Under the pieces are notes generated by a model. That model worked only from the letters and a program-made list of their open reading frames with translations. It was not told the DNA's origin and searched no databases. From contig CAKOOM010000003.1 of NCBI GenBank assembly GCA_934098395.1, positions 88,091-152,090 of the forward strand: 64,000 nucleotides of DNA, written 5' to 3'. Source of the stretch: an uncultured Bacilli bacterium (GTDB lineage Bacteria; Bacillota_I; Bacilli_A; RF39; UBA660). The position numbers and the translations under genes are program-made. Numbering within the stretch: position 1 is the stretch's first letter; every line of letters starts with the position of its first letter. Below are positions 8,968-60,987 of the stretch, in pieces.

Positions 8968-9744
8968 ATGGAAGAAAAAAAGAAAAAAACATTATTAACA
9001 TTATTAATATTACTAGCCTTAATAATTCTCGTAGGAATTGGTGGATCTTTTGCATACTTTACCGCTAGCGTCAGCAGTGAAAAAGATGCCGTAAATGTAA
9101 AAGCTGCAGTATTTGAAATTGATCTCGAAGATGATATTTCACTAATTAAAGATAATATCATACCATCAGCAGAAAAATATGTAGATATTGCTAGTAAAAG
9201 ACAAGATGAAAATGGTAACTTTTTAAAACCAACTGTCGATACCGATGGTAAAACTATAACAAAAGGTACTGCTTGTATTGATGATAACCTAAATGAAATC
9301 TGTAGTATCTATACCTTTACCATTATAAACAAAATGACTGATTCCGATGTTCCATTATATATAACCCTTAACCCTAATGTTAATACTTTTAAAAACTTAT
9401 ATTTTAAAGTATTAGATCAAGATTTGAATGAGGTAATACCAGCAACTTTGTTGGTGGACGATCGTGAGTATACAACTGATAGTGAAGGTAACAAAATATA
9501 TGATGCTAATAGTAAAATATCTCCAATTGTTTTGAGTAATATCAATAAAACCTTAAATAGAGCTACTAGCTTAGATAATCCAAGTAAAGTAACATATTCC
9601 ATAGTTATGTGGATTATGGAAACAAATGAATTACAAAATGACTATGATGGTGGAAAAATCTTTGCCTCAACCCTAAATGTAAAAGCCAGTGGAGCCAATG
9701 GTCAAGGAATTACCGGTGTAATTTCTGCAACTGGTACCGAATAG
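8968..9744 (+). CDS. Secreted protein with a SipW-cognate class signal peptide, TasA/camelysin-like (paralog 3). I place the start at ATG 8968 (MEEKKKK...) rather than 8959
   Basis: The signal peptide ...LVGIGGSFAYFTAS. It shares blocks with paralog 1 (NTFKNLYF.VLD.D..EVIPAT, CIDDN.NE.C, V.WI.E, G.TGVI.A). ATG 8968 has better RBS spacing (AGGGA 9 nt upstream) than ATG 8959. Confidence 0.6.
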   Translation: MEEKKKKTLLTLLILLALIILVGIGGSFAYFTASVSSEKDAVNVKAAVFEIDLEDDISLIKDNIIPSAEKYVDIASKRQDENGNFLKPTVDTDGKTITKGTACIDDNLNEICSIYTFTIINKMTDSDVPLYITLNPNVNTFKNLYFKVLDQDLNEVIPATLLVDDREYTTDSEGNKIYDANSKISPIVLSNINKTLNRATSLDNPSKVTYSIVMWIMETNELQNDYDGGKIFASTLNVKASGANGQGITGVISATGTE

Positions 9745-9781
9745 TTATTGACAAAAATAAATATAGTGATATAATAAATCT

Positions 9782-9920
9782 AGTTTTCGGTTTATGGAGT
9801 GACAACATAAATATTAACGAAACTGACAATTTAATAATATAATCAAGAGCACGAAAGTGAAATAAGGTGGCACCGCGGTAATCCCGTCCTTATACCTTTA
9901 CTTTTCGTGCCTTTTTAATT
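9782..9920 (+). promoter_or_regulatory. T-box leader (tRNA-sensing riboswitch) upstream of aspS, with terminator stem 9849-9910
   Basis: A sigma-A-like promoter TTGACA-16-TATAAT lies at 9747-9775. The T-box consensus AATAAGGTGGCACCGCGG is at 9861-9878. GCACGAAAG (9849-9857) pairs with CTTTTCGTGC (9901-9910) and is followed by a T-run. A GAC codon in the candidate specifier region is consistent with Asp. Confidence 0.8.
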
Positions 9921-9937: not shown

Positions 9938-11677
9938 ATGAAAGAAAATGCATATCGTAGTATCTACTGCGGTGAAGTAACCAAAGAATATGTTGGAAAA
10001 GAAGTAAGATTAGCTGGTTGGGTAAATTCAATTAGAAATCTCGGAGGATTGTTATTTATAACTCTAAGAGATGAAAGTGGAATAGTTCAATTAATATCTG
10101 AAGATGTTGATAAATATATTAATATTAATCGAGAGAGTACTGTCACTATCACTGGTGTAGTTCAAAAAAGAACAGATGATATGATTAATCCAAATATGAA
10201 AACTGGAGAAATTGAAGTATTAATTAAATCCCTTGAAGTCCTTGGTGAATGTCTAAATGTCCTACCATTTGAAATATCTAGATCAAAAGAATCTACCGAA
10301 GATACCAGATTAAAATATCGTTATCTTGACTTAAGAAACAGTGAAGTCCATAACAATATTCTCTTCAGAAGTCAAGTAATTGATTTTATAAGAACAACTA
10401 TGAAAAGTATGGATTTCGTAGAAATACAAACCCCTATAATCACCTCATCATCTCCTGAAGGAGCAAGAGACTTTATTGTTCCATCTAGAAAATTTAAAGG
10501 AAAATTTTATGCTCTACCACAAGCTCCACAAATATTTAAACAATTATTAATGGTTGGTGGATTTAATAAATATTTTCAAATAGCACCATGTTTCCGTGAT
10601 GAAGATCCAAGAAGTGATAGATTATATGGTGAATTTTATCAGCTAGACTTTGAAATGTCCTTTGCTGATGCTGAAGATGTCTATAAAGTAGGTCAAAAAG
10701 TTTTTTATGACATCTTTACAAAATTTGGTAACAAAGAAGTAAGTGAAGTTCCATTCAAAAGAATCCCTTATACTGAAGCAATTTTAAAATATGGTAGTGA
10801 TAAACCAGATTTAAGAAATCCATTAATTATCGAAGATATAACAGATATCTTATCAAAAACATCTTTTGAACCATTTAAAAACACTACCATCAGATGTATA
10901 AAAGTAGATTCAATAGATAAATCAAACTCTTGGTATAAACAAATGGAAGAATATGTTCGTACTATAAACGGGGTACTCGGATACATAAAAGTAACTGAAA
11001 ATATGACCTTTAAATCATCTTTAGATAAATTTATGACTGATGAAATAAGAAAAGAATTGATAGATAGATTATCCCTTTCTGAAGGTAATGTCGTATTCAT
11101 TATTGCTGATAAAGAAAAATGTGCTAAAATGATGGGACAATTAAGAATTAAACTAGGTAAAGAATTAGATTTAATTGATAAAAGTAAATATGCTTTTTGT
11201 ATTGTAAATGATTTCCCATTCTATGAACTAGATGAAGAAACTGGCAAAATAGAATTTTCTCACAATCCATTTTCTATGCCACAAGGTGGCTTGTCAGCAT
11301 TAAACGAACAAGCTCCTCTTGATATAAAAGCTTATCAATATGACTTCGTATGTAACGGTTATGAAATGGCCTCTGGTGGAGTAAGAAATCATAGCCCAGA
11401 AATATTAAGAAAAGCATTTGAAATTGCTGGTTATGATGAAGAAGTAGTTAAATCAAAATTCCCATCATTATATACAGCCTTTAATTATGGTGCTCCACCA
11501 CATGCTGGAATGGCTCCAGGAATTGATCGTATACTAATGCTTTTAAAAGATGAAGAAAATATCCGTGAAATGGTTGCATTCCCACTTGGTGCCAATGGTG
11601 CTGACTTGATGATGGGCTGTCCCGGAGAAGTATTTGAAAAACAATTACAAGAAGCCCATATAAAAATAAGAGATTAG
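9938..11677 (+). CDS. aspS: Aspartyl-tRNA synthetase
   Basis: 579 aa. The class II aaRS motifs FQLDFEMSF and GGVRNHSPE and the C-terminal GAPPHAGMAPGIDR are present, together with an N-terminal OB-fold. Confidence 0.9.
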   Translation: MKENAYRSIYCGEVTKEYVGKEVRLAGWVNSIRNLGGLLFITLRDESGIVQLISEDVDKYININRESTVTITGVVQKRTDDMINPNMKTGEIEVLIKSLEVLGECLNVLPFEISRSKESTEDTRLKYRYLDLRNSEVHNNILFRSQVIDFIRTTMKSMDFVEIQTPIITSSSPEGARDFIVPSRKFKGKFYALPQAPQIFKQLLMVGGFNKYFQIAPCFRDEDPRSDRLYGEFYQLDFEMSFADAEDVYKVGQKVFYDIFTKFGNKEVSEVPFKRIPYTEAILKYGSDKPDLRNPLIIEDITDILSKTSFEPFKNTTIRCIKVDSIDKSNSWYKQMEEYVRTINGVLGYIKVTENMTFKSSLDKFMTDEIRKELIDRLSLSEGNVVFIIADKEKCAKMMGQLRIKLGKELDLIDKSKYAFCIVNDFPFYELDEETGKIEFSHNPFSMPQGGLSALNEQAPLDIKAYQYDFVCNGYEMASGGVRNHSPEILRKAFEIAGYDEEVVKSKFPSLYTAFNYGAPPHAGMAPGIDRILMLLKDEENIREMVAFPLGANGADLMMGCPGEVFEKQLQEAHIKIRD

Positions 11678-11692
11678 TAAAGGAGTAGGGTT

Positions 11693-13147
11693 ATGGTTGA
11701 AAATAAAGATATAGCTATAATATTTAATCGAATAAAAGAAGAAAACGGTGATGAATTTTTTAAACCAGTCAAAGTAGTCGAAGGCTACTTTGATGAAGTA
11801 GAAGAATGGTTTATCGATAAATCAGGTAATACTCATAGTCATATTTGTGAATGTGTTACTAGTGGTAACGTATATGGTTGCCGTCAACAAATTTCATCAC
11901 TTATTGCTAAATACAAAAATAAAACCTTTGATGAAATAAAAAAAGAAATTCTTACATTTGCCAAAAAGTATATTTACTTAAGATCAGCAGATGATATGTT
12001 CAAAATATTAATGATTGATAAAACTACTAATGAAGAATTTATCTTTAAAGATATCGATGCCGAAGAAGTATATGAAAAATCAAACTATTATCAAGAACAG
12101 TTTGAGTCATCACAATCAACAACTAAAGAGTTATCACCATCTACAGATTATAAAGAATCCGTAAATATTAATTTAACGCCAAAAGAAATAGCAACTAAAG
12201 TCAAAGAGACTGTTAAAGGCCAAGATGAAATCATAGATACGCTTGTAACTACAATATATTTAAACAGAAAATATCCAAATCTAAGAAAAAACAATGTCCT
12301 TTTAATTGGTCCCACTGGTGTTGGAAAAACATATATTTGTGAAACTCTAGCTAAGATTTTAAATATTCCTATAATTATCTTTTCATCAGCTGGCTTGTCT
12401 CAAGCCGGATATGTTGGAAGAGGTACTGAAGAGATATTAGAACAAATCTTAATTGAATGTAACAAAAACCCTAAACTTGCTAAAAATGCTATTGTTATTT
12501 TAGACGAATTAGATAAATTAGCATACACCGACATTGAATCTGGTTCCGTATCAACCAAAGGTGTTCAAAATGAATTATTAAAAATAATCGAAGGTGACAA
12601 AAGAAGTATTCGAATTGGTGGCATCGGACAATACACTATTGACACTTCTAATATTATCTTTATTGGTACTGGAGCATTCTCTGAAATATATGAAAAGAAA
12701 CACGCTCCTAAAAAAGCATCTATTGGTTTCAATTCCACTACTATAGATGAAGAAACAAATAAAATAACTAATGATGATTTAGTTAAATACGGTCTTAAAA
12801 GAGAATTATTAGGACGTCTCCCAATCATTCTTGAATTAAATAATTTAACCAAAGAAAACCTAAAAGATATTATTATTAATTCTAAAGAAAGCGAATTAAA
12901 TAAAATTGTTAATCTCCTTGAAAGTCTTGGTGTTAACTGCAGTAATATAGATAAATTAATTGATATTATTGCAACTGATGCTCTTGAAAAAAAGATTGGC
13001 GCTAGAGGTTTAACTTCAACCATAAACAAAGTATTTATGGATATCTTTTATGACATTTTAAGTGATAATTCCGAAGATAGTGAACTAACAATTGGCTCTA
13101 ATATTTTAACTGACAAAAAAGATTATACTTTAACTAAACATAAATAA
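11693..13147 (+). CDS. ClpX-family AAA+ unfoldase with a non-canonical ~160-aa N-terminal domain that lacks the C4 zinc-binding domain
   Basis: Walker A LLIGPTGVGKT, pore-1 loop GYVG, Walker B ILDELDKLA, the block DTSNIIFIGTGAF, and an IGF loop (KKASIGFNST). Upstream of these, the N-terminus shows no homology to the ClpX zinc-binding domain (only HICECV..C). Confidence 0.7.
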   Translation: MVENKDIAIIFNRIKEENGDEFFKPVKVVEGYFDEVEEWFIDKSGNTHSHICECVTSGNVYGCRQQISSLIAKYKNKTFDEIKKEILTFAKKYIYLRSADDMFKILMIDKTTNEEFIFKDIDAEEVYEKSNYYQEQFESSQSTTKELSPSTDYKESVNINLTPKEIATKVKETVKGQDEIIDTLVTTIYLNRKYPNLRKNNVLLIGPTGVGKTYICETLAKILNIPIIIFSSAGLSQAGYVGRGTEEILEQILIECNKNPKLAKNAIVILDELDKLAYTDIESGSVSTKGVQNELLKIIEGDKRSIRIGGIGQYTIDTSNIIFIGTGAFSEIYEKKHAPKKASIGFNSTTIDEETNKITNDDLVKYGLKRELLGRLPIILELNNLTKENLKDIIINSKESELNKIVNLLESLGVNCSNIDKLIDIIATDALEKKIGARGLTSTINKVFMDIFYDILSDNSEDSELTIGSNILTDKKDYTLTKHK

Positions 13148-13165
13148 ATACAAGGTAGTGATTAT

Positions 13166-13930
13166 ATGAAAGAATTAAAAGATATTGAAAAATCCATTCA
13201 AAAAAAATATCGAAAAGAAATATTTTCTAAATTTATCAAAGCTGTTAAAGAATTTAACTTAATCGAAGAAAATGATAAAATAGCCGTATGTATTTCCGGA
13301 GGAAAAGATTCTTTTCTCTTAGCAAAATGTATGCAAGAATTAGTTAGACATAATAAATTTAATTATGAAGTAAAATATATTGTAATGGATCCAGGATATC
13401 AAAAGGATAAATTAGAACAAATAAAAGCAAATGCTAAACATTTAAATATCCCTATAGAAATATTTGAAACAAATATTTTTGATATCATCAAAGATACTGA
13501 AAGTCCTTGTTTCTTATGTGCTCGTATGCGCCGTGGATGCCTTTATTCTAAAGCCGAGGAATTAGGTTGTAACAAAATAGCTCTAGGTCATCATTTTAAT
13601 GATGTTATAGAAACCATTCTTCTAAACATGATATATAATGGGAAATTTTCTGGAATGCTACCAATCCTAAATAGTGATAACTATAAAAATATGCAACTAA
13701 TAAGACCATTATATTATATTAAAGAAAAAGATATTATTTCATGGGTTAAATATACTGAAATGAATTTTATAGATTGTGCTTGCAAAGTAACTAAAAAAAA
13801 TCTTGGTAAAAGAAAAGAAGTAAAAGCCTTATCATATCAATTAACTGATATGTACGAACATGCTGATACTAATATCTTAAATTCTATGTTTCATGTAAAT
13901 CCTAATACAACATTTACTGATAAATCGTAA
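13166..13930 (+). CDS. ttcA: PP-loop ATPase, TtcA-like tRNA 2-thiocytidine (s2C32) biosynthesis protein
   Basis: PP-loop SGGKDS and the Cys motifs CFLCARMRRGC and CAC, as in TtcA. Confidence 0.75.
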   Translation: MKELKDIEKSIQKKYRKEIFSKFIKAVKEFNLIEENDKIAVCISGGKDSFLLAKCMQELVRHNKFNYEVKYIVMDPGYQKDKLEQIKANAKHLNIPIEIFETNIFDIIKDTESPCFLCARMRRGCLYSKAEELGCNKIALGHHFNDVIETILLNMIYNGKFSGMLPILNSDNYKNMQLIRPLYYIKEKDIISWVKYTEMNFIDCACKVTKKNLGKRKEVKALSYQLTDMYEHADTNILNSMFHVNPNTTFTDKS

Positions 13931-13936
13931 TTACAA

Positions 13937-13970
13937 GTGCCTGACACATCAAAAGTCATGGCACTTTTTA
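13937..13970 (+). terminator. Putative terminator after ttcA (GTGCCTGAC...GTCATGGCAC plus a T-run)
   Basis: Imperfect hairpin followed by TTTTTA. Confidence 0.45.
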
Positions 13971-14057
13971 TTAATAATTTAAATTTTGTCAACAACAAGT
14001 TATAATATTTGACTAGCATAATTATATATGATAAACTTAAAATGAAGGTGATAAGTA

Positions 14058-17371: not shown

Positions 17372-18001
17372 TTAAAATTTTCTATACAAACCAATAGCTT
17401 TTCCTAAAATAGTAACATTTTTTAAAATAATTGGTTCCATATAATCATTTTCTGGCTGTAATCTAAAATAGCCATTTTCCTTATAAAAAGTTTTCAAAGT
17501 AACTTCATTATCGTCATTCATTGCCACAACCATATCGCCATTTCTAGCACTGTCGCATCTCTCAACAATAACTATATCATTAGAAAATATCCCCTTATTA
17601 ATCATACTCTCACCATCAACTTTCAAAGTAAATACTTCCTTTTTACTAGGTATCAAATAAGCGGGTAGTGAGAAAAATTCATTAGGTACCTCAATAGCCT
17701 CAATCGGAGAACCAGCTGTAACCTTTCCTAAAAGCGGAACATTAACAACATCCTCACCCCTTGTTTCATACTCATTAGGTACTAATAGTTCTAATGCTTT
17801 ATTTCCTTCCTTACTTCTCTTTATATATCCCTTATCAACTAAATGATTAATATGTACATGAACCGTAGCTGGTGAAGACAAATTAATTGCACTACATATT
17901 TGTCTAATTGAAGGAGGGTACTTATTATCTGCATGAAATTGTTTAATAAATTCTAAAACTTCTTTTTGTTTCTTCGTTAATCCATCAGTTTTCTGTCTCA
18001 T
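17372..18001 (-). CDS. lexA: LexA repressor (SOS regulator)
   Basis: An N-terminal winged HTH plus the S24 peptidase motifs GESM and K at the catalytic positions. Confidence 0.9.
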   Translation of the reverse strand: MRQKTDGLTKKQKEVLEFIKQFHADNKYPPSIRQICSAINLSSPATVHVHINHLVDKGYIKRSKEGNKALELLVPNEYETRGEDVVNVPLLGKVTAGSPIEAIEVPNEFFSLPAYLIPSKKEVFTLKVDGESMINKGIFSNDIVIVERCDSARNGDMVVAMNDDNEVTLKTFYKENGYFRLQPENDYMEPIILKNVTILGKAIGLYRKF

Positions 18002-18339: not shown

Positions 18340-19266
18340 TCATTGTTTAATTCCTTGATATGTATTTCTTTTTTTCATTTCCTTATCTATATCATTAAGT
18401 AACTGACATTTATCACATAACCATTTAGGTTCTACTAGCAAATCCTTATCCGGATCACTCGTAATTCTATTGATAACAATTTTTGAATTCAGTAATTCTA
18501 ATTGTTTAATAACTATATCTATGTATTCTTCTTTACTAAGAATATGAAATTTTGTCTTTTCATAAAGTCTAGCCATTTCTGTATCTTTAATAATATGTAA
18601 CATATGAATCTTTATACCTTGAATATCTAACTTATTTAAATGTCTTACTGTATCTAACATCATCTCTTCACTCTCAAATGGTAATCCATTAATAATATGT
18701 ACTAAAACATTAATATTTCTTTCCCTAAGTTTTTTAACCATTTCATCAAATTCATCAAGGGTATGACATCTATTAATTATCTCCGTAGTCTTTTTATGAA
18801 TAGTCTGTAGTCCAAGTTCAATAGTTAAAAAAGTCCTTTTATTAAGTTCTTCCAAATAATCCAAACACTCATCACTAATCGCATCACATCTCGTAGCTAT
18901 ATTAAGTCCAATAACATCGTCTATCTTAAGGACTTCTTCATATTTTTTACGAAGCACATCCACTGGGGCATAAGTATTAGTTCTTGCCTGAAAATAACCA
19001 ATATATTTACAAGGAATATGACGTTTATTAACAACTTCCTTAATTTCCATAAATTGTTCTGTTAAACTCTTATGGATATCTCCTCCAAATTCACCACTAC
19101 CACTTTTAGAACAATATATACATCCACCGTATCCTAGTGTTCCATCTAAATTAGGACAACTAAATCCACCATTTAAACTAACCTTAAATACCTTTATCCC
19201 AAATTTATTTTTATAAAAATAATTAAGTGTATGATATCTCTTATTATCTAGTGTATATTCAAACAT
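18340..19266 (-). CDS. Radical SAM protein, TIGR01212 family
   Basis: A CxxxCxxC-like cluster CPNLDGTLGYGGCIYC, 308 aa. Confidence 0.75.
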   Translation of the reverse strand: MFEYTLDNKRYHTLNYFYKNKFGIKVFKVSLNGGFSCPNLDGTLGYGGCIYCSKSGSGEFGGDIHKSLTEQFMEIKEVVNKRHIPCKYIGYFQARTNTYAPVDVLRKKYEEVLKIDDVIGLNIATRCDAISDECLDYLEELNKRTFLTIELGLQTIHKKTTEIINRCHTLDEFDEMVKKLRERNINVLVHIINGLPFESEEMMLDTVRHLNKLDIQGIKIHMLHIIKDTEMARLYEKTKFHILSKEEYIDIVIKQLELLNSKIVINRITSDPDKDLLVEPKWLCDKCQLLNDIDKEMKKRNTYQGIKQ

Positions 19267-20269: not shown

Positions 20270-21535
20270 ATGACTTTTGCAATACATACATTTGGTTGTA
20301 AAGTAAATATATATGAATCTGAATATGTAACAAATTTATTACAAACATCTGGATATGAAATGGTTGACTTCTCCAAAGAAGCCGACATCTATATTATAAA
20401 TACTTGTTCTGTTACTAACGAAGCTGATAAAAAAGACCGTAAATTAATTCACACAACAAGAAAAAATCATCCTGATAAAATTTTAATTGTTATGGGATGC
20501 TATTCGCAATTAAATAAAGATCTAATTGATGCCGACATTGTTTTAGGTAATAAATACAAGTCTGCAATTATTTCTCTTATTAAAGAGTATATAGAAACTA
20601 AAACCAAGATTGTAAAAGTTGAAGATATCTCTAAAACTAACTTTGAAGATATGTATATAAATAGATTTATAACCCATACTAGAGCCTTTGTTAAAATTCA
20701 AGATGGCTGTAATGCCTTTTGTGCTTATTGCGCCATTCCTTATGCCAGAGGTGGTATCAGAAGCAAAGATATGAAAATAGCTATTTCCGAAGTTACTAAC
20801 CTAGTAAACAATGGATATAAAGAAATAGTTTTAACTGGAATACACACCGGAAGATATGGCATAGATTTAGATACTAATCTCGAATCTTTATTAAAAGAAT
20901 TAATAAAAATCAAAGGAATATTAAGAATAAGATTATCAAGTATTGAAATAAATGAAATAACTCCAGGTATTATTAACCTAATAAAAACATCTAATGTAAT
21001 GGCTAAACATCTTCATATCCCGTTGCAATCAGGTTCCGAAGAAATCCTAAAAAGCATGAATAGACATTATACTAAAGAATATTTTATTGAAAAAGTATCA
21101 TCCATCAGAAAAGAAATCCCAGATATATCTATAACAACCGATCTAATTGTTGGCTTTCCTGGAGAAACCGAAGCAAATCATCAAGAAACAATCGATACTC
21201 TTAATAAAATTAAATTTACTAAAATTCATACTTTTCCATATTCCAAAAGAAATGGTACTAAAGCTGCCTCAATGCCTTGTCAAGTAGATGGAAATACCAA
21301 AAAATGTCGTGTAAAAGAAGTTCTTAACCTATCAGATAAATTTGAAGAAGAATTCTATAAAAGTAAAATATCTAATACTTATTCCGGCATTATAGAAACT
21401 AGAAAAGATGGTACAAAAGTAGTAATAACTACTAACTATATCCCAGTTGTTGTAGAAACTACTAGAAAAAACAATGAAATTGTCAATGTAACAATAACTC
21501 ATGTTGATACTTTAGTACATGGTAAAATTGACTAA
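20270..21535 (+). CDS. mtaB: tRNA (t6A37) methylthiotransferase MtaB (radical SAM MTTase)
   Basis: MTTase N-terminus FGCKVNIYESE, the radical SAM cluster CNAFCAYC, and a TRAM-like C-terminus. Confidence 0.8.
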   Translation: MTFAIHTFGCKVNIYESEYVTNLLQTSGYEMVDFSKEADIYIINTCSVTNEADKKDRKLIHTTRKNHPDKILIVMGCYSQLNKDLIDADIVLGNKYKSAIISLIKEYIETKTKIVKVEDISKTNFEDMYINRFITHTRAFVKIQDGCNAFCAYCAIPYARGGIRSKDMKIAISEVTNLVNNGYKEIVLTGIHTGRYGIDLDTNLESLLKELIKIKGILRIRLSSIEINEITPGIINLIKTSNVMAKHLHIPLQSGSEEILKSMNRHYTKEYFIEKVSSIRKEIPDISITTDLIVGFPGETEANHQETIDTLNKIKFTKIHTFPYSKRNGTKAASMPCQVDGNTKKCRVKEVLNLSDKFEEEFYKSKISNTYSGIIETRKDGTKVVITTNYIPVVVETTRKNNEIVNVTITHVDTLVHGKID

Positions 21536-21583: not shown

Positions 21584-22561
21584 ATGGATATAAAAAACTA
21601 TATCTTAAATAAATATTTAGATATTGATGAAATACTATTAAATTATTTAATTACATATTTTAATTATATTGATACCTATAATCTTTATCCATCTAATATT
21701 TTGTTAACAGATATTATTGATACAACTTTAACTAATGTAAGACGTATTATATTTTTTGATAAAGATAGTGATATTGTAAAAGCTGTTGGTGGAGATTTTC
21801 TAGGTATTACCATTAATGAAGAACAAACTATATATATAAATTCGCAAGCCAACGAAAAAACTAAAGAAACTACAATTTATCATGAAATACACCATGCTGC
21901 ACAAATAAAAAAAGATGCCTTAATTACTAATCCATACGATACCCTTGTGGGAATTCGCTTTAATAACCTAGGAATACTTATTAACGAAGCTCAAACAGCA
22001 TATCTAGCTGATTCAATTTATCAAGAAATTCATCATAACAAATCTGTTTATATTAATTATCCAAGCGATAAATTCCATATGTTACCTGGTGGAACAATTA
22101 TCTCTAACTTATCATGTTACCAAGTATATGATTATTTATTAACTAAACTTTCTTTTCTACTTGAATTACCAAAAGAGTTTTTTATAAAAATAAATTATCT
22201 TTTTGAACTAGATGATAATAATTATCCTAAAGGATTAACTGTTTTAAAAGAAATATATAATAAATATCAAACTATCTATAACATACCATTATCGTTTGAT
22301 AATCTTATGTATCAACTAGATTATATTGCATATATGTATGAATTAACACGCTCTAACTATGAAGAAGGAATGTATTATTTTTCACCTCATACATCTATTC
22401 CTGTAAACTTTAACCATCAACTTGAAATGCTTATTATGAACGGTTTAGATAAAGTATTTTTAACCAAGGATTTAAAAGAAAAAAATCCCGAAGTATATAA
22501 AAAATTATCTAACTATACCTTTAAAAACAAAAAAGTAAAAAAACTACAAAGAAATTTATAG
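21584..22561 (+). CDS. Hypothetical protein carrying a HEIHH (HExxH-like) motif
   Basis: 325 aa. Two H-E-I-H-H segments are present. No confident family. Confidence 0.45.
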   Translation: MDIKNYILNKYLDIDEILLNYLITYFNYIDTYNLYPSNILLTDIIDTTLTNVRRIIFFDKDSDIVKAVGGDFLGITINEEQTIYINSQANEKTKETTIYHEIHHAAQIKKDALITNPYDTLVGIRFNNLGILINEAQTAYLADSIYQEIHHNKSVYINYPSDKFHMLPGGTIISNLSCYQVYDYLLTKLSFLLELPKEFFIKINYLFELDDNNYPKGLTVLKEIYNKYQTIYNIPLSFDNLMYQLDYIAYMYELTRSNYEEGMYYFSPHTSIPVNFNHQLEMLIMNGLDKVFLTKDLKEKNPEVYKKLSNYTFKNKKVKKLQRNL

Positions 22562-22634: not shown

Positions 22635-23177
22635 ATGGAAGAAATATTACTAAATGCAGAAGAAAAAATGGAAAGTACAATTAACTCACTTGATTATAAA
22701 TTTACTAATGTTAGAGCAGGACGTGCTAATCCTAGTATGTTAGATGGCATAACAGTTGAGTACTATGGTAGTCAAACACCATTAAAACAACTAGCAAATA
22801 TCAGTATTCCTGAAGCTAGACAATTAATGATTAAACCATTTGATAAAGGAATACTTGGTGGTATTGAAAAAGCTATTTTCGAAGCTAATATTGGAATAAC
22901 TCCAAATAATAATGGAGAATGTATCTTTTTAGTCATTCCACCATTAACTGAAGATCGTCGTAAAGAATTAGTAAAACAAGTAAAATCTTTAGCTGAAGAA
23001 GCACGTATAGCACTAAGAAATATTCGTCAAGAAGCTAATAATGAATTAAAAAAATTAAAATTACCTGAAGATGAAGAAAAACAAGGTAATGAAGAAGTTC
23101 AAGAATTAATAAATAAATATAATAAAGTCGTAGATGAAAGACTAAAAGTCAAAGAACAAGATTTAATGACTATCTAA
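22635..23177 (+). CDS. frr: Ribosome recycling factor
   Basis: VRAGRANPSMLDGITVEYYG.... Confidence 0.92.
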   Translation: MEEILLNAEEKMESTINSLDYKFTNVRAGRANPSMLDGITVEYYGSQTPLKQLANISIPEARQLMIKPFDKGILGGIEKAIFEANIGITPNNNGECIFLVIPPLTEDRRKELVKQVKSLAEEARIALRNIRQEANNELKKLKLPEDEEKQGNEEVQELINKYNKVVDERLKVKEQDLMTI

Positions 23178-24085: not shown

Positions 24086-25135
24086 ATGAATAAAGAAACA
24101 ATAGTAAATTTAAAAGAAGATATTAAAAAGAAATTCAGTGAAGATTTAAATCTTCAAAAACTAAATGATTTAAAAGTTGAATACCTAGGTAAAACAGGTA
24201 TTATTACTGAATTATCAAAAGAAATGAAAAATATTGCCAATGAAGATAAAAAAGAGTTTGGTAAACTAATAAATGAATTAAGAGAAGAGTTTAATAATTT
24301 ATATGAAGAAACTAAAGCCAAGATTGAAAAATCTATTTTAGATGAAAAATTATCTAAAGAAAAAATAGATATATCACTTCCTAGTACTAATTTACCTGTT
24401 GGTGCTCCAAATATTTTAGAGTTAGTTATCGAAGAAGTTGAAGAATTACTTATGTCTATGGGATATGATGTCGTAGATGGACCAGAAATTGAAGAAGATA
24501 AATATAACTTTGAATTATTAAATATCCCTAAAGGACACCCTGCTAGAGATGCTCAAGATACTTTCTATATCGAAGATGAAAAAATCCTCTTAAGAAGTCA
24601 AACATCCCCAATGCAAGTAAGAACTATGTTAAAAGGTGAAGGAAAGACTCCAATAAGAATGATTTGTCCTGGAAAAACATATCGTCGTGATGACGATGAT
24701 GCTACTCATTCACATCAATTCATGCAAATTGAAGGCTTACTCGTAGATAAAAATATTAGTTTATCTGATTTAAAAGGAACCTTCGATGTAATTGCTAAAA
24801 AATTATTTGGACCAGACTGTGTAACTAGATTTAGACCAAGTTACTATCAATTCACTGAACCATCCGTAGAAACTGATATCAGTTGCTTTAACTGTCACGG
24901 ATCAGGTTGTAATATATGTAAAAATACCGGATGGATCACCGTATCCGGAGCTGGTATGGTTCATCCTAATGTCTTAAGAAACTGTGGCTATGACCCTGAA
25001 GAATGGTCTGGATTCGCCTTTGGTTTTGGTGCCGAGAGATTAGCTATGTTAAAATATGGCATAAATGATATCAGAACCTTCTATATGACAGACTTAAGAG
25101 AAGTAAAAACATTTGATAGAAAGGAACGTGATTAA
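24086..25135 (+). CDS. pheS: Phenylalanyl-tRNA synthetase alpha subunit
   Basis: Class II aaRS motifs including FRPSYYQFTEPS and GFAFGFGAERLAM. Confidence 0.93.
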   Translation: MNKETIVNLKEDIKKKFSEDLNLQKLNDLKVEYLGKTGIITELSKEMKNIANEDKKEFGKLINELREEFNNLYEETKAKIEKSILDEKLSKEKIDISLPSTNLPVGAPNILELVIEEVEELLMSMGYDVVDGPEIEEDKYNFELLNIPKGHPARDAQDTFYIEDEKILLRSQTSPMQVRTMLKGEGKTPIRMICPGKTYRRDDDDATHSHQFMQIEGLLVDKNISLSDLKGTFDVIAKKLFGPDCVTRFRPSYYQFTEPSVETDISCFNCHGSGCNICKNTGWITVSGAGMVHPNVLRNCGYDPEEWSGFAFGFGAERLAMLKYGINDIRTFYMTDLREVKTFDRKERD

Positions 25136-25136
25136 T

Positions 25137-27509
25137 ATGATAAGCTTAAATTGGGTAAAAGACTATGTTGACTTAGAAGGAATAGACCTATCCGAATTAG
25201 CCGTAAAAATAACTAAAGCCGGAGTAAATGTTGAAAAAGTTTTAACTAATCATATTAATAATTTAACTATTGGTCTAGTTACTGAGTGTACTAAACATCC
25301 AGATAGCGACCATTTAAATATCTGTACCGTAGACCTTGGATCACATTCTACTCAAATCATCTGTGGGGCTCCAAATGTAAAAAAAGGTATCAAAGTAATC
25401 GTCGCTATGCCCGGAGCCATCCTACCAGGAAACTTTGAAATAAAAGTTAGCAAAATACGTGGTGTCGAATCAAATGGTATGATTTGTGCTTTATTTGAAC
25501 TAGGTCTTGAAGAAAAAACTGAAGAAAATTATCAAAAAGGAATATATATCTTACCAGACGATGCTCCTATAGGAACAGATCCACTAAAATATTTAAATCT
25601 AGATGATACCTTGTATGAACTAGACGTTCATAAACATCGTAATAATGATTGTTATTATCATATTGGCTTTGCTTACGAAATAGCTACTATTTTAAATAAA
25701 AAAGTAACTCTTCCAAAAGATGATTTTAAAGAAATAGCTGACAATATCAACGATCATTTTAAATTATCCGTAGAAACCGATAAATGTCCTTACTATAGTG
25801 CTAAAATGGTAAGCGATGTAACTATCAAACCATCACCAGATTTTATTCAAAAAAGATTAATCTCTGCCGGTATGAGACCAATAAATAATGTCGTAGATAT
25901 CTCTAACTACGTAATGCTTGAATACGGACAACCATTACACTTCTTTGATAAAGATAAACTAGGAAATAATATCTTAGTAAGACAAGCTAACGAAGGTGAA
26001 ACTATAACTACTCTAGATAATAAAGAAAGAATCTTATCCAAAAATGATATCGTAATAACTAATGGTACCACTCCAGTATGCATTGCTGGTGTAATGGGTG
26101 GCCTAAATACCGATGTAGATTCATCTACTAAAAATATCTTAATAGAAAGTGCTATCTTTAATCCCATTAGTATTCGTTATACCTCAAGTAGATTAAACCT
26201 AAAAAGCGAAGCCTCTATTAGATATGGTAAAGGATTAAACTACGAATATACTAACTTAGCCCTATTAAGAGCATGTCATCTATTAGAAAAATATGCTGAT
26301 GCTAAAATCTTATCTGGAACAGTACTATACGATAAAGTAGATAAAACTAAAAAAGTAGTAACCTTTAAAGAAGAAGATATCAATTCCTTACTAGGAATAA
26401 CTATCTCTGAAGAAGATATTGCTAAAGAATTAACAAGATTAGATTTTACCTATACTAAAAAAGATAATATCTTTACTTGTACTATTCCTAATCGAAGATT
26501 AGATATAGAGCCAAATACTAATGATATAGCTGAAGAAATAGGTAGATTATACGGATATCATAATCTCGTATCAACCCTTCCAGTATGTACTACTAAAAAA
26601 GGTGAATATATTGGTGATGTTAAATACCGTAAATTAGTATCCCGTAGATTAAGAACCCTTGGTCTAAACGAAACAAAAACCTATACCTTAACATCTCCAG
26701 ATATGGCTAAATTATTTAACTATGATAATCTTGAACAAATAAAATTACCTAATCCAATGAGTATCGATAAATCTATTATAAGAACATCTATCTTACCATC
26801 ACTATTAAATATTTATGAATATAACAAAGCCAGAAAAGTCGAAGATGTCCTAATCTATGAAATAAGCAAAACATATAGTAAAGATTATATCGAAGACACT
26901 AAAATAGCTATGTTACTAAAAGGAACTTATCTAACTAACAATTGGCAACATAACTGTGTTAAAATAGATTTCTATCTAGTAAAAGGAATTGTTGAAAACA
27001 TTCTAAATTATCTCGGATTAAAAAATAGATATACATTTATTCAAACAGAAATATCTTCTCTTCATCCAGGTATTAGTGCTAAAATAATTCTTGATAAAGA
27101 AGAAATAGGTATAATTGGAAGAATTCATCCATCTATTAACAAAGATGAAATATACTTAGCAGAATTATCTTTAAATAAATTAATTAAAACTATTAAACCA
27201 ATTAAATATATTCCTTCATCTAGATATCCTGAAATAAAAAAAGATGTATCATTCATTATTGATAAATCTACAACATGTAAAGAATTAATTGATACTATTA
27301 AAAAATCTGGAGGAAGATTATTATCAGATGTATCCGTATTTGATGTATATACTGGTTCTAATATCAAAGATAATGAACTATCAATTGCTTTCTCCCTAAC
27401 ATTTAAAGATGAGTTAAGAACTCTAACAGATGAAGAAGTAATGAATATCTTTAATAATATTATTAAAGATGTAACTACTAAACATCATGCTGTGTTAAGA
27501 GATAATTAA
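25137..27509 (+). CDS. pheT: Phenylalanyl-tRNA synthetase beta subunit. I place the start at ATG 25137 (MISLNW...)
   Basis: MISLNWVKDY..., a tRNA-binding domain, B3/4, B5 and FDX-ACB domains. ATG 25137 is preceded by AAAGGAACG. Confidence 0.92.
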   Translation: MISLNWVKDYVDLEGIDLSELAVKITKAGVNVEKVLTNHINNLTIGLVTECTKHPDSDHLNICTVDLGSHSTQIICGAPNVKKGIKVIVAMPGAILPGNFEIKVSKIRGVESNGMICALFELGLEEKTEENYQKGIYILPDDAPIGTDPLKYLNLDDTLYELDVHKHRNNDCYYHIGFAYEIATILNKKVTLPKDDFKEIADNINDHFKLSVETDKCPYYSAKMVSDVTIKPSPDFIQKRLISAGMRPINNVVDISNYVMLEYGQPLHFFDKDKLGNNILVRQANEGETITTLDNKERILSKNDIVITNGTTPVCIAGVMGGLNTDVDSSTKNILIESAIFNPISIRYTSSRLNLKSEASIRYGKGLNYEYTNLALLRACHLLEKYADAKILSGTVLYDKVDKTKKVVTFKEEDINSLLGITISEEDIAKELTRLDFTYTKKDNIFTCTIPNRRLDIEPNTNDIAEEIGRLYGYHNLVSTLPVCTTKKGEYIGDVKYRKLVSRRLRTLGLNETKTYTLTSPDMAKLFNYDNLEQIKLPNPMSIDKSIIRTSILPSLLNIYEYNKARKVEDVLIYEISKTYSKDYIEDTKIAMLLKGTYLTNNWQHNCVKIDFYLVKGIVENILNYLGLKNRYTFIQTEISSLHPGISAKIILDKEEIGIIGRIHPSINKDEIYLAELSLNKLIKTIKPIKYIPSSRYPEIKKDVSFIIDKSTTCKELIDTIKKSGGRLLSDVSVFDVYTGSNIKDNELSIAFSLTFKDELRTLTDEEVMNIFNNIIKDVTTKHHAVLRDN

Positions 27510-47971: not shown

Positions 47972-49141
47972 ATGAAAGATCATAAATGTATAAATTGCCA
48001 AGCAGAAATTGAAGAAAATGATAACTTTTGTTGGAAATGTGGTCATTGGAGCGCTAAAGGATATTCCTTTTTTAATAATAACGAAGAAGTTGTTAAAATA
48101 GTCGAAGAGGGAAATCTAGCTAAGCATGATACTAGAAATGCTTATTTAATCTTTATGTTATTATTAACATTTATAATCTTTTTAGCTCTATCTTGGTATC
48201 GTGGAATGGATATCTTTAGACCAGTATTTTATTTAGAAAAACAAGTATATAAATATATTTACGGTTACAATGTTTCTATATTAAAAACTGACAATCAATA
48301 CTATAACAAGTCAATAAATAGTTTAAATGATGCTAACAATTACATAATAAAAGATTTAAACGAACAAGATTATAAATGTGGTAATAATATTGAAGTTCAC
48401 AAAATTGAAGATAGACTAGAAAAAGATTATGCTATTAAAGCTGTTAATTTTTGCGATATATCACTTGAAGAAACTAAACGCTTAGCAACCGTAATTGACA
48501 AAATGTATAATTTATTTCCAAGTGTTAAAGGATATTTAACAAACATCAGTATAACTAACGCCAAAGAACAAGAAATATATATTGCTTATTTTGAACCAAT
48601 ATATCAATTTGTTAACAGTAATGCTGATATCAGTAGTTTTAATAAAGTAAATAAAACACAAATATTACTAAATAGTTATTATTTTCTAAATGAAGAAACT
48701 ATTAAAAATAGCATAACAGAAAAAGTTGCAAAAGATTGGTATGTTAATGATGCAACTTGGGAATCATTATTTTCTCATGAATTTGGTCATTATATATCGT
48801 TTGTAGCACTACTAAAACTCCATGGTATTAATAGTATAACATTTGAAACAAAAGATAATTATCAGCAAATACAACAAATAATTGATGAGTTTAATGGTAG
48901 AGAATATTCAAATCAGTTGTTAAATGAAGCCTATAATAATTACAAATTAATTTATTCATATAATGGCGATATTAACACATTTGCTCTGAGTATATCTAAA
49001 TATGCCGCTAATAAAGATAAATCTGGAAAATTAATTGCTGATGAAACTCTAGCCGAAGCAATTCATGATTATTATTTACATGGATCTAACGCAAAAGCAC
49101 AAAGTTTAGAAATAGTAAAAGTTATAAACTCAAAATTGTGA
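47972..49141 (+). CDS. Membrane protein with an N-terminal C4 zinc ribbon, one TM helix, and an extracytoplasmic domain bearing a HEFGH (HExxH) motif. It is a putative zinc-metallopeptidase-like protein
   Basis: CINCQ...CWKCGH, the TM helix LIFMLLLTFIIFLALSWY, and FSHEFGHY. Confidence 0.55.
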   Translation: MKDHKCINCQAEIEENDNFCWKCGHWSAKGYSFFNNNEEVVKIVEEGNLAKHDTRNAYLIFMLLLTFIIFLALSWYRGMDIFRPVFYLEKQVYKYIYGYNVSILKTDNQYYNKSINSLNDANNYIIKDLNEQDYKCGNNIEVHKIEDRLEKDYAIKAVNFCDISLEETKRLATVIDKMYNLFPSVKGYLTNISITNAKEQEIYIAYFEPIYQFVNSNADISSFNKVNKTQILLNSYYFLNEETIKNSITEKVAKDWYVNDATWESLFSHEFGHYISFVALLKLHGINSITFETKDNYQQIQQIIDEFNGREYSNQLLNEAYNNYKLIYSYNGDINTFALSISKYAANKDKSGKLIADETLAEAIHDYYLHGSNAKAQSLEIVKVINSKL

Positions 49142-52995: not shown

Positions 52996-53289
52996 ATGAA
53001 TAGTATACCTAACACTACAAATTTAAATGTTAGAGTAGATTCTACACTTAAACAAGAAAGCGATAAATTATTTAAAAATTTAGGTTTAAATATGAGTACT
53101 GCAATTAATATGTTTTTAACCAAATGTGTTAAAACATCAAGTATCCCTTTTAAAATTGAAGAACCTACTCCGAGTAAAGAACTAGAAAAAGCATTAAAAG
53201 AACTAGATTATATGATGAAACATCCTGATAAATACAAAGCTTATAATTCAGTTGAAGAATTATTTAAAAAATTAGATAAAAATAATTAA
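52996..53289 (+). CDS. RelB/DinJ-family type II antitoxin with no adjacent toxin gene (an orphan)
   Basis: NLNVRVDSTLKQESDKLFKNLGLNMSTAINMFLTKCVKTSSIPFKI resembles the DinJ N-terminal ribbon-helix-helix. Its own promoter is TTGACA-17-TACAAT (52947-52975). Confidence 0.65.
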   Translation: MNSIPNTTNLNVRVDSTLKQESDKLFKNLGLNMSTAINMFLTKCVKTSSIPFKIEEPTPSKELEKALKELDYMMKHPDKYKAYNSVEELFKKLDKNN

Positions 53290-58264: not shown

Positions 58265-58300
58265 AAAAGTGTGGACATGCTATATTTGTCCACACTTTTT
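58265..58300 (+). terminator. Rho-independent terminator of secA (AGTGTGGACA-(9 nt)-TGTCCACACT plus a T-run)
   Basis: A 10-bp perfect stem followed by TTTTT. Confidence 0.75.
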
Positions 58301-58322
58301 AAATTTAAAAAGGAGGTTTTTA

Positions 58323-59330
58323 ATGGAAGAAAAAAATAATATTGTAATATATCAATTAGAAGATGGTAAAACAAAAATAGATGTAAAACTTGAAGATGAA
58401 ACCGTATGGTTATCACAACAACAGATGGCAGACCTATATGATACGACTAAACAAAATATAAGCTCACATATCAAAAATATCTTTGATGAAGAAGAATTAG
58501 ACATAAATTCAACTGTCAAGGAATTTTTGACAGTTCAAAAAGAAGGAACCCGAAAAGTTGAAAGAAAAGTTAAATATTACAATTTAGATATGATTATATC
58601 TTTAGGATATAGAATAAAATCAAAAGTAGCTACTAATTTTAGAAGATGGGCGACTGAAAGATTAAAAGAATATATGATTAAAGGCTTCACTATGGATGAT
58701 GAAAGACTTAAAGGCAATGGTGGAGGTAATTATTGGAAAGAATTACTTGCCAGAATTAAAGATATTAGGTCATCAGAAAAAGTATTATATAGACAAGTTC
58801 TTGATTTGTATGCCACAGCAATTGATTATAATCCTAAAGACAGTAAATCAATTGAATTTTTTAAAATTGTTCAAAATAAACTTCACTATGCTGCCCACGG
58901 ACATACAGCCCCTGAAGTAATATATGAAAGAGCAGATTCTGATAAACCTTTTATGGGATTAACTACTTTTAAAGGTGATTTGCCAATAATGAGTGATGTC
59001 GTAATTGCTAAAAATTATTTGACTGAAGAAGAATTGAAAATTTTAAATAATTTAGTATCTGGATATTTTGATTTTGCCGAAATACAAGCAATTAGACACA
59101 ATCCAATGCATATGGATGATTATATTAAACAACTAGATACAATCCTTTCTAGTACTGGAGAAAAGTTACTTGTTGGAGCAGGTACAGTTAGTCATGACAA
59201 AGCAATTGAAAAAGCAAAAGATGAATATAAGAAATATCAAGTAAAAACAATAAGCCCAGTTGAAAAAGAATATTTAGAAACATTAAAAACGATAAGTCAT
59301 AAAATTGATGATAAAGCAAAGAATGAATAG
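58323..59330 (+). CDS. RhuM-family protein ('virulence protein RhuM'). I place the start at ATG 58323
   Basis: IVIYQLEDGKTKIDVKLEDETVWLSQQQMADLY...GYRIKS...RRWATERLKEY matches the RhuM-family pattern. The RBS AAAGGAGG precedes ATG 58323. The tracked start at 58269 lies inside the secA terminator. Confidence 0.65.
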   Translation: MEEKNNIVIYQLEDGKTKIDVKLEDETVWLSQQQMADLYDTTKQNISSHIKNIFDEEELDINSTVKEFLTVQKEGTRKVERKVKYYNLDMIISLGYRIKSKVATNFRRWATERLKEYMIKGFTMDDERLKGNGGGNYWKELLARIKDIRSSEKVLYRQVLDLYATAIDYNPKDSKSIEFFKIVQNKLHYAAHGHTAPEVIYERADSDKPFMGLTTFKGDLPIMSDVVIAKNYLTEEELKILNNLVSGYFDFAEIQAIRHNPMHMDDYIKQLDTILSSTGEKLLVGAGTVSHDKAIEKAKDEYKKYQVKTISPVEKEYLETLKTISHKIDDKAKNE

Positions 59331-59438
59331 CATTGCATAAATAAAAGACTTGAAATCTTTTTGTTATTTGTATTTTTTTAGTGATTTTGGGGCTTTTTAT
59401 CAATAATTAAATTAAAAATAAGTATAAGGAGGAAAAAT

Positions 59439-59843
59439 ATGAATGTTGTTGGAACGATGTTTTTTAAAAACGAAAAATTATTAATAGATAAACCAAGAAA
59501 AAGGCCAACATATCAAATGATTGGTGGTAGGGTTGAGGAAGGTGAAACACCATTAGAAGCTGCAATTAGAGAATGTCATGAAGAATTAGGAAGTGAAGCA
59601 ATATTTGATAGTTCATTAATAGAGTTGGTAATGGAATTTGACGAGATAGCAACAAGTGATGGTATAACTCCAATTCATTTCTACGTTTTTAAATATAATG
59701 GAATATTAGAAGGAAAATTAAACACATCAGATGAAATCGAAAACTTTAAATGGTATGAATCTGCAGATGGAGATACGATGCTTTCAAATACATTAAAAAA
59801 TGAAGTTATTCCATACTGTCTAAAAAAGAATTTTATAAAATAG
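59439..59843 (+). CDS. NUDIX hydrolase
   Basis: Nudix box GGRVEEGETPLEAAIRECHEELG. Confidence 0.85.
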   Translation: MNVVGTMFFKNEKLLIDKPRKRPTYQMIGGRVEEGETPLEAAIRECHEELGSEAIFDSSLIELVMEFDEIATSDGITPIHFYVFKYNGILEGKLNTSDEIENFKWYESADGDTMLSNTLKNEVIPYCLKKNFIK

Positions 59844-59999
59844 TTTTATTATGTATATTTTTTATAATAGAATTATTAAATCAATTTTCTTAACTAAATG
59901 TAAAATTTATCTAAGTTGTAATTAATTAAAATTATTTTAGATGTTTTTGCCTAAATCACTCTTAAAATATAGTGTGATTAAAAAGGAAAGGATAATTTC

Positions 60000-60905
60000 A
60001 TGGATAAAATTATAGATTTAATAGTAAGAAACAATGAATTATTATTTGGAACAAACCCAAGTATTGAAAAAATTAATGTTGGATTTACAAACACTTTATA
60101 TAAAATAAATGATTCTTATATAGTTAAAATATGTACTGATATAGATAACGAAGAAGCATTTAAAAAAGAAATTGTTTTTTATAACTCTAATAAAGATAAT
60201 ATCTTAATTCCTAAATTATATTATTCAAGTACAGATAAAAAAGATGTTCCATACTTTTATGAGATTCTTGAAAAAATAAATGGTGTGTCTCTATATAATG
60301 TTTGGCATACTTATACCGAAAAGCAAAGAGAAAATATAATAAAACAATTATGTGACGCCATGAAACAAATGCACAACATTAAAGGTAGGAGATATAATTG
60401 GCCTGAATATATGAAAAAAAAGTTTAATCTTTTATATGAACAAGCCAAAAAATTAAATATTTTTAATGATGAGGAACAAGGACTATTAAATCAAGCATAT
60501 TCTAATTTTGACAAGTACCTTGAATCTAATGAGTTCGTTTTAGTTCATAATGATCTTCACTTTGATAATATACTAGTGGATAATGGTAACATTAAAATAA
60601 TAGATTTTGAAAGATCAATGTATGCACCAAGAGATTTTGAATTAGACATATTTTATAGAATGATAAGAAAACCATGGAAATTTGCCAGTGAAGAAACTGA
60701 AAAATATACAGAAATTAGTCAATACTCAAATATAATGCTATATGTTAATAAATACTATCCTGAATTAATTAATACTCCAAATTTACATGAAAGATTAAGA
60801 ATATATGATATGGTTTATTTTCTAGAACAATTAATAGAACATCCTGAACTAGATGAATTAAAAAACGATGTATTAATAGCAACAAATGGAGTTGAATCAA
60901 AATAA
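60000..60905 (+). CDS. Phosphotransferase-family kinase (APH/ChoK-like)
   Basis: Catalytic loop HNDLHFDNILVD and the IDFE motif. Confidence 0.7.
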   Translation: MDKIIDLIVRNNELLFGTNPSIEKINVGFTNTLYKINDSYIVKICTDIDNEEAFKKEIVFYNSNKDNILIPKLYYSSTDKKDVPYFYEILEKINGVSLYNVWHTYTEKQRENIIKQLCDAMKQMHNIKGRRYNWPEYMKKKFNLLYEQAKKLNIFNDEEQGLLNQAYSNFDKYLESNEFVLVHNDLHFDNILVDNGNIKIIDFERSMYAPRDFELDIFYRMIRKPWKFASEETEKYTEISQYSNIMLYVNKYYPELINTPNLHERLRIYDMVYFLEQLIEHPELDELKNDVLIATNGVESK

Positions 60906-60987
60906 ATATAACAAAATTTCATAAATAAAAGTTAAGTAAAAACTGTATTATTTATGTTATAATATTCGATACAACGGTGGTGATATA

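Follow-up and report, generated by a model that had tools for sequence, protein, structure and literature searches.

What is a ClpX-type unfoldase doing inside a tRNA operon, and is it a ClpX at all? The question is raised by a gene on contig CAKOOM010000003.1 (assembly GCA_934098395.1) of an uncultured Bacilli bacterium, of which a stretch of 64,000 nucleotides was analyzed (positions 88,091 to 152,090; hereafter the window). The gene, an open reading frame (ORF) of 484 amino acids at 11693-13147 on the forward (+) strand, lies 15 nt downstream of aspS and 18 nt upstream of a ttcA-like gene, positions and gaps exactly as given in the original prediction, which had been made from the sequence without database searches and had described a ClpX-family unfoldase with a novel N-terminal domain (N-domain). 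It encodes a real, conserved and undescribed ClpX variant that has a lineage-specific N-domain and a conserved, unusual place in a T-box-type aspS operon. Judged from sequence, it would most likely be the sole ClpX of the organism. We consider it probable that this is the clade's own ClpX, given a new head and still working with ClpP.

The C-terminal 320 residues form a complete ClpX motor, with the motifs for ATP binding and hydrolysis, a pore-1 tyrosine loop, an arginine finger and sensor-2. PDB profile search, Foldseek and NCBIfam place the AAA+ module at aa 166-484 plus the stop codon (12188-13147, +). Motif position and alignment locate within it, all on the + strand, Walker A GPTGVGKT (aa 206-213, 12308-12331), the pore-1 loop GYVG (aa 239-242, 12407-12418), Walker B IVILDE (aa 267-272, 12491-12508), GRLP in the arginine finger region (aa 374-377, 12812-12823) and GARG of sensor-2 (aa 436-439, 12998-13009). 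The DTSNIIFIGTGAF block, placed by motif position, is found at aa 317-329 (+), and the IGF tripeptide (aa 344-346, 12722-12730, +), which aligns with that of E. coli ClpX, lies in a flexible loop spanning aa 337-355. All the hallmarks named beforehand (Walker A and B, GYVG, DTSNIIFIGTGAF and IGF) could thus be located in the protein. Its assignment to the ClpX family is upheld by both profile and fold. A 17-member family profile searched against PDB matched solved ClpX with E = 2e-69 over residues ~155-479, with IGF falling on the E. coli IGF. The full-length AlphaFold model matched the ClpX chains of ClpXP complexes solved by cryogenic electron microscopy (Foldseek against PDB, E = 4e-26, target template modelling (TM) score ~0.8); the ~340 aligned columns mean that only the motor was matched. 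Pfam matches were AAA_2 and ClpB_D2-small. The best NCBIfam matches were two ClpX equivalogs, both below their cutoffs (NF003745, 217.4 against 359; TIGR00382, 193.4 against 370.75).

The full-length model has a mean predicted local distance difference test score (pLDDT) of 79.5 and consists of a folded N-domain, a disordered segment at residues 128-158 and the AAA+ module. Within the module, low confidence is limited to residues 280-285 (pore-2) and 337-355 (the IGF loop, pLDDT < 50). Low confidence is what would be expected of a flexible docking loop, and the model suggests that the IGF and pore-2 loops are flexible as they are in ClpX.

Relatives were scanned in one genome per GTDB species, and the motor was compared in an alignment of 29 sequences comprising E. 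coli ClpX, the window protein, 23 related species loci and four zinc-finger ClpX loci. The pore-1 tyrosine is present in all 29, with GYVG varying to GYKG, GYQG or GYIG in some. Closer members, including a close family of 31 sequences, retain Walker A and B, the arginine finger (GR) and sensor-2 (GARG); among the most distant ones, several depart from the Walker A, arginine finger or sensor-2 motif. The original prediction had also found no obvious RKH loop, and none exists: a shortened segment, IRIGGIGQYT (12608-12637, +), aligns to E. coli PPQGGRKHPQQEF. RKH is absent from every non-canonical member, the loop segment being 6-9 residues shorter than in E. coli ClpX, and GGRKHP occurs together with a CxxC...CxxC zinc finger in each of the canonical controls (L018, L020 and L049). 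With the RKH loops lost, recognition of C-terminal degrons would be expected to differ from that in E. coli. The docking tripeptide has been kept. Of the 23 related species loci, 22 share [ILVM]GF with the window protein, even at identities as low as ~30% and amid freely variable flanks, and in the 31 closer sequences G345 and F346 are invariant. Such retention between variable flanks argues for docking to ClpP and is the best indirect evidence for it. By the features that define the ClpX family, the protein falls short in score, zinc-binding domain and RKH loop, and conforms in motor motifs, IGF loop and fold.

Two further observations concern the ends of these proteins. Many family members (P0021, P0025, P0015 and P0033 among them) carry a Lys/Arg-rich C-terminal tail of 10-25 residues, for example KKRVKKKVRI; the window protein has no such tail and ends in TLTKHK. 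A ClpX variant encoded at L022 3007-4299, in a Bacillota metagenome-assembled genome (MAG), has a Cys-rich, zinc-finger-like N-terminus (CSLCG...CISC), no RKH and a GYKG pore loop, and may be an intermediate between canonical ClpX and the ClpX-like family.

The N-domain (aa 1-125, 11693-12067, +) was delimited from an AlphaFold2 model, the searches described here and substitution rates, and is predicted to be an acidic alpha/beta domain with an isoelectric point (pI) of 4.9. Modelling of aa 1-165 from 23 sequences gave block means of pLDDT of 84-97 for aa 1-120, most of them exceeding 90; eight strands and two helices are predicted, after which come a further helix (residues 123-143) and a disordered tail. 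Full-length homologs conserve residues 1-125, among which P25, G31, F40, H50, R64 and D120 are invariant. H50 is the sole invariant His or Cys of the domain; Cys52, Cys54 and Cys63 are not conserved. Pfam gave no match at all in aa 1-165, zf-C4_ClpX included, which agrees with the earlier observation that the first ~160 residues lack the C4 zinc-binding pattern. That observation had left room for a divergent zinc-binding domain, and a zinc-finger identity is excluded by the lack of a conserved Cys/His pattern, the lack of a Pfam match and a different predicted fold. No credible relative of any kind was found in Pfam (searched with all 23 members), among PDB sequences, or by Foldseek against PDB and BFVD. 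A profile of the domain searched against 1.84 billion representative proteins returned 155 clusters, in which it is almost always N-terminal in proteins of 450-540 aa, or occurs in short fragments. Other architectures were limited to two long outliers, P0237 and P0256, which are SprB and BTB repeat proteins and were rejected as spurious. Because it has no detectable relatives, one architecture and a different fold, the domain is, on the evidence of searches and models, private to the ClpX-like family rather than a zinc finger that has diverged.

Between the N-domain and the motor lies a linker (aa 126-165, 12068-12187, +) that begins with a helix and continues as a disordered segment (pLDDT < 50 at aa 128-158). 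Its length and sequence vary among homologs, and it tethers the two folded parts by ~35 disordered residues that evolve near neutrality. The ancestral C4 zinc-binding domain is missing and its position is taken by this 125-residue acidic domain, which we propose has assumed its role in recognizing substrates and adaptors. The suggestion that the protein might be an adaptor-free unfoldase found no backing in any part of the analysis.

The carriers are a clade of uncultured, fast-evolving Bacilli of the gut, which may belong to the orders RFN20/RF39. The identical protein is encoded on 28 contigs of up to 296 kb, including human-gut metagenome assemblies (those of Hadza samples, for example), and it bears the NCBI name "AAA family ATPase [Bacilli bacterium]". 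Carrier MAGs are labelled Bacilli, Tenericutes, Erysipelotrichaceae or Clostridium sp. CAG:914. Full-length relatives with a recognizable N-domain occur at L001-L013, with weaker resemblance at L016 and L017; in the distant RKH-less members (L014, L015, L042, L052, L067, L072, L074 and L079) the N-region is of another kind or unrecognizable. These lineages have been described as fast-evolving, reductive relatives of the Mycoplasmatales (PMC10868615).

A clpX remnant heading for loss, as in Mycoplasmatales, could be suspected from the missing zinc-binding domain and RKH loop and from a rate of nonsynonymous substitution (dN) raised relative to neighboring genes. Nei-Gojobori estimates of the ratio of nonsynonymous to synonymous substitution rates (dN/dS) speak against this. 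Relative to L084, whose protein is 78% identical, the ratio is 0.17 for the N-domain, 1.10 for the linker and 0.11 for the motor; relative to L001, it is 0.21 for the whole clpX-like gene, compared with 0.095 for aspS and 0.12 for ttcA. At no locus is the ORF disrupted; the N-domain is conserved, with a confident fold in the model, and the catalytic motifs are conserved in the close family and mostly kept in distant members. Decay is therefore largely ruled out by the ratios of 0.11-0.21 in the folded parts and is extremely improbable. By these comparisons the gene is functional and under purifying selection (dN/dS ~0.1-0.2), with the linker free to drift.

The protein could be either the organism's only ClpX or an extra, specialized paralog that sits beside a canonical zinc-finger ClpX, shares its ClpP and draws its own set of substrates through the N-domain. 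For the latter there is a precedent in Myxococcus xanthus, whose ClpX3 lacks the N-terminal domain and RKH and coexists with ClpX1 (PMC11423568). Scores under the ClpX equivalog cutoffs would suit a paralog, as would the evolutionary rate, since evolving faster than neighboring genes is typical of paralogs. Against it, no canonical clpX was found in ~84 kb around the gene or at any family locus, and the 64 kb window holds only one ClpX-like match; moreover, the ClpX-like family is present at every related species locus recovered, as would be expected of an ortholog. Reductive, fast-evolving lineages (PMC10868615) are less likely to keep a second ClpX, and the increase in rate may be lineage-wide. 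A paralog is, on balance, unlikely. In a small, fast-evolving genome a sole, divergent ClpX is at least as likely as a specialized paralog.

Several observations weigh against a ClpX that serves the clade as its own and still works with ClpP. A tblastn search with E. coli and B. subtilis ClpP queries found no clpP in the window or 10 kb to either side of it (~84 kb), nor within 6-10 kb of 32 family loci (23 species genomes, 8 metagenome contigs and L085), and most canonical clpX loci in the same scans have clpP directly upstream. The related Mycoplasmatales are not known to have any ClpXP. The protein also changes two to three times faster than AspS, Ddl and TtcA, which is unusual for a housekeeping ClpX: relative to loci that share the neighborhood, identity is 78-86% for AspS, 82-91% for Ddl, 87-92% for RuvB and 40-62% for the ClpX-like protein. 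Finally, neither NCBIfam cutoff is reached (217 against 359 and 193 against 370), and the NCBI name goes no further than AAA family ATPase. As to the first of these points, clpP is normally unlinked to clpX in Bacilli (in B. subtilis, clpX stands in tig-clpX-lon and clpP is monocistronic), so that a missing clpP nearby is expected and is weak evidence. A tmRNA gene, which would have hinted at the protease repertoire, was found neither in the window nor in the related DNA retrieved. Taken together with the conserved docking tripeptide, the favored reading is that the protein would assemble as a hexamer that unfolds and translocates proteins, most likely passing them on to a ClpP whose gene lies elsewhere in the genome.

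The operon that contains the gene raises a second question, namely why an unfoldase should be expressed with tRNA genes. The upstream gene (9938-11677, +) is unambiguously aspS by its sequence matches, encoding aspartate--tRNA ligase (NF001750, 715 bits against a cutoff of 443; Pfam tRNA-synt_2, tRNA_anti-codon and GAD). The downstream gene (13166-13930, +) encodes a putative ttcA-like PP-loop tRNA thiolase (NF007972, 208.6 bits, below the cutoff of 272; Pfam ATP_bind_3) with an SGGKDS PP-loop, Cys115xxCys118, Cys204 and Cys206. The clpX-like gene and ttcA each have a separate Shine-Dalgarno sequence, that of the former being AAAGGAG, 7 nt 5' of the ATG at 11693; homologs keep the MVE with which the ClpX-like protein starts. 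A sigma-70 promoter upstream of aspS (9748-9775, +; TTGACA, a 16 nt spacer and TATAAT, with an extended -10 TG) matches the consensus at 12 of 12 positions, and 7 genomes share its -35 and -10 hexamers. A rule-based scan found no terminator between aspS, the clpX-like gene and ttcA. An intrinsic terminator follows ttcA at 13935-13972 (+), where a hairpin of -14.2 kcal/mol (z = -5.3) is succeeded by UUUUUAUU; this one was not listed by the rule-based scan.

The promoter leads into a short T-box-like leader (9757-9915, +; Rfam RF00230) with a candidate Asp specifier, AAGGUGGCACCGCGG and a terminator hairpin with a U run. It scores 40.1 bits against RF00230 (E = 8.5e-8) where the gathering score is 93, and at the gathering threshold Rfam gave no match in the window or in 10 related loci. 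Upstream of aspS in the window and at L001-L006, AGUGACA (GAC = Asp), AAGGUGGCACCGCGG and the terminator hairpin (-22.9 kcal/mol, z = -3.45) are invariant. Stem I is very short or minimal. The leader, almost invariant across these 7 genomes, may represent a reduced form of the T-box that escapes standard annotation. We infer that aspS, the clpX-like gene and ttcA form one transcript controlled by the charging of tRNA-Asp, a predicted unit that accords with the tight tRNA-metabolism gene unit first proposed and whose context recurs in related genomes. Given one promoter and one putative T-box(Asp) leader for all three genes, the unfoldase should rise when tRNA-Asp is uncharged.

The gene order of the window is found in 7 related species genomes and 8 metagenome contigs. 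The upstream neighbor is aspS or a shorter class-II Asp/Asn-type synthetase in 10 related loci and the window; elsewhere it is tgt (3 loci), ttcA (1) or the gene for ribosome recycling factor (1), and a YceD-like gene lies directly upstream at L016, L017 and L042 and one ORF away at L015. Downstream, ttcA follows in 8 related loci and the window, ddl in 3 where ttcA is missing, queH in 4, and a gene for ribosomal protein L21 or L19 in 2. At L007, L015, L017 and L042 the downstream ttcA or queH overlaps the clpX-like gene, with ORFs called from the first in-frame start. A tRNA gene (aspS, ttcA, tgt or queH) flanks the clpX-like gene on at least one side in the window and in 17 of the 23 related species loci. 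The recurrence of an iron-sulfur (Fe-S) tRNA-modifying enzyme, TtcA or QueH, in the downstream slot is suggestive.

Some of this arrangement extends further. In the distant branch of L014, L015, L017 and L042, queH (epoxyqueuosine reductase) directly follows the clpX-like gene, with a 2 nt gap at L014, and a gene of the HIGH_NTase1 family (PF05636), which we take to be TmcAL-like, lies two to three genes upstream on the opposite strand. In the window, mnmL and mtaB lie within 8 kb of the clpX-like gene, and mnmL, mtaB, the ribosome recycling factor gene and pheST within ~14 kb. This run of tRNA and translation genes downstream of the operon (18340-19266, -; 20270-21535, +; 22635-23177, +; 24086-27509, +) encodes an MnmL/YtqA radical-SAM tRNA modification enzyme, MtaB and PheT, identified by NCBIfam, and ribosome recycling factor, identified by Pfam; pheS (24086-25135) is assumed from its position.

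Such a neighborhood could be read to mean that the protein is a ClpP-independent unfoldase or remodelling chaperone for tRNA-metabolism proteins, with aspartyl-tRNA synthetase (AspRS) and the Fe-S enzymes TtcA and QueH as candidates, and which by analogy would assemble, activate or recycle its clients much as mitochondrial ClpX does with ALAS. The flanking tRNA genes, the close or overlapping ttcA or queH, the predicted co-transcription under a T-box(Asp) leader, the proximity of mnmL and mtaB and the lack of a clpP nearby all fit this. Linkage of aspS, tgt and ruvAB, however, is that of a single ancestral Bacilli region (ruvAB-queA-tgt ... relA-dtd-hisS-aspS in B. subtilis), so that most of the arrangements are not independent, and translation genes are dense in small genomes; for both reasons the neighborhood signal was down-weighted and a strong functional reading of it set aside. 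A strictly conserved IGF loop is also hard to explain without a ClpP-like partner, an acidic N-domain (pI 4.9) is no obvious RNA binder, and no link between ClpX and tRNA modification was found in the literature. ClpP-independent action is, on this evidence, quite doubtful. Equally doubtful is the more specific idea that motor and private N-domain together make a dedicated partner of tRNA metabolism, induced through the T-box by uncharged tRNA-Asp, which would remodel, mature or selectively degrade AspRS or the Fe-S tRNA-modifying enzymes (TtcA, QueH and possibly Tgt), with or without ClpP.

The protein was also compared with described systems. To bacterial ClpX (E. coli and B. subtilis; NF003745/TIGR00382) the protein is alike in its single AAA+ module (~31-33% identity, TM ~0.8), in Walker A and B, GYVG, arginine finger and sensor-2, and in having an IGF loop at the homologous position. 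It differs in lacking the C4 domain and the RKH loop, in having an unrelated 125-residue domain and a shorter pore-2 region, in its sub-cutoff scores and much faster evolution, and in a gene position away from tig, clpP and lon. The closest published precedent is ClpX3 of M. xanthus, likened here by its description as a paralog without N-domain and RKH (PMC11423568). ClpX3 is simply without an N-domain, and the large genome that encodes it has three ClpX copies; the window protein has a new N-domain, predicted to be folded, and may be its organism's only ClpX. HslU, the sister AAA+ clade, is the second-best match (107.7 bits against a cutoff of 362; E = 3e-40 in the PDB profile search), but it has an inserted I-domain and docks to HslV through its C-terminus, neither of which is seen in the window protein, whose alignment shows no insertion. 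Mitochondrial ClpX, including yeast Mcx1, has altered recognition loops and ClpP-independent chaperone roles such as ALAS activation. The family profile matches mitochondrial CLPX in PDB with E = 4e-55; this protein belongs to a eukaryotic lineage, human CLPX retains the zinc-binding domain, and there is no homology to the new N-domain. Apart from the ClpX3 precedent, our literature search returned nothing on this ClpX-like family, on Clp systems of RFN20/RF39, on ClpX of Mollicutes or on ClpX and tRNA modification.

Other genes of the window were recorded alongside. Between polC and aspS lie three tandem paralogous genes (7278-8045, 8154-8879 and 8959-9744) encoding proteins of 241-261 aa that share an N-terminal hydrophobic segment ending in AYFSA or AYFTA; TIGR04088, the model for SipW-dependent signal peptides, matches the third. 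No NCBIfam protein family is matched by any of them, and the Pfam record is empty for all three, a Pfam search with the third having been negative as well. Two or three copies occupy the same place at L001-L003, L005 and L006. A lexA-like repressor gene (LexA_DNA_bind and Peptidase_S24; 17372-18001, -) is convergent to ruvB, and its presence suggests that the reduced genome retains an SOS regulator. No NCBIfam match was obtained for 30630-32645 (671 aa) and 35151-36899 (582 aa), scanned at E <= 1e-10, or for 47972-49141 (389 aa) and 21584-22561 (325 aa) at E <= 0.001, the last also having an empty Pfam record. Precomputed Pfam labels for the matching contig indicate a small RelB-family antitoxin-like gene at 52996-53289 and, at 58269-61467 after secA, an accessory-looking group comprising RhuM-family, NUDIX, aminoglycoside-phosphotransferase-like kinase and WYL-domain regulator genes.

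Few protein machines have been studied as well as ClpX, in which the choice of substrates and adaptors depends heavily on the zinc-binding N-domain and the RKH loops. Throughout a clade of common uncultured bacteria of human and animal guts, the head of ClpX has given way to an unrelated, fast-changing domain, with the motor and the ClpP-docking loop retained, a natural experiment in the re-targeting of an AAA+ protease that centers on a compact 125-residue domain without a match in the libraries searched. It also exposes an annotation gap, these proteins being labelled by NCBI merely as AAA family ATPases. Were the protein a partner of tRNA metabolism, it would represent a previously unknown tie between an AAA+ unfoldase and the control of tRNA modification and charging. 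The place of the gene under a T-box-like leader hints that, in these reduced genomes, regulated unfolding or proteolysis may be wired to tRNA charging.

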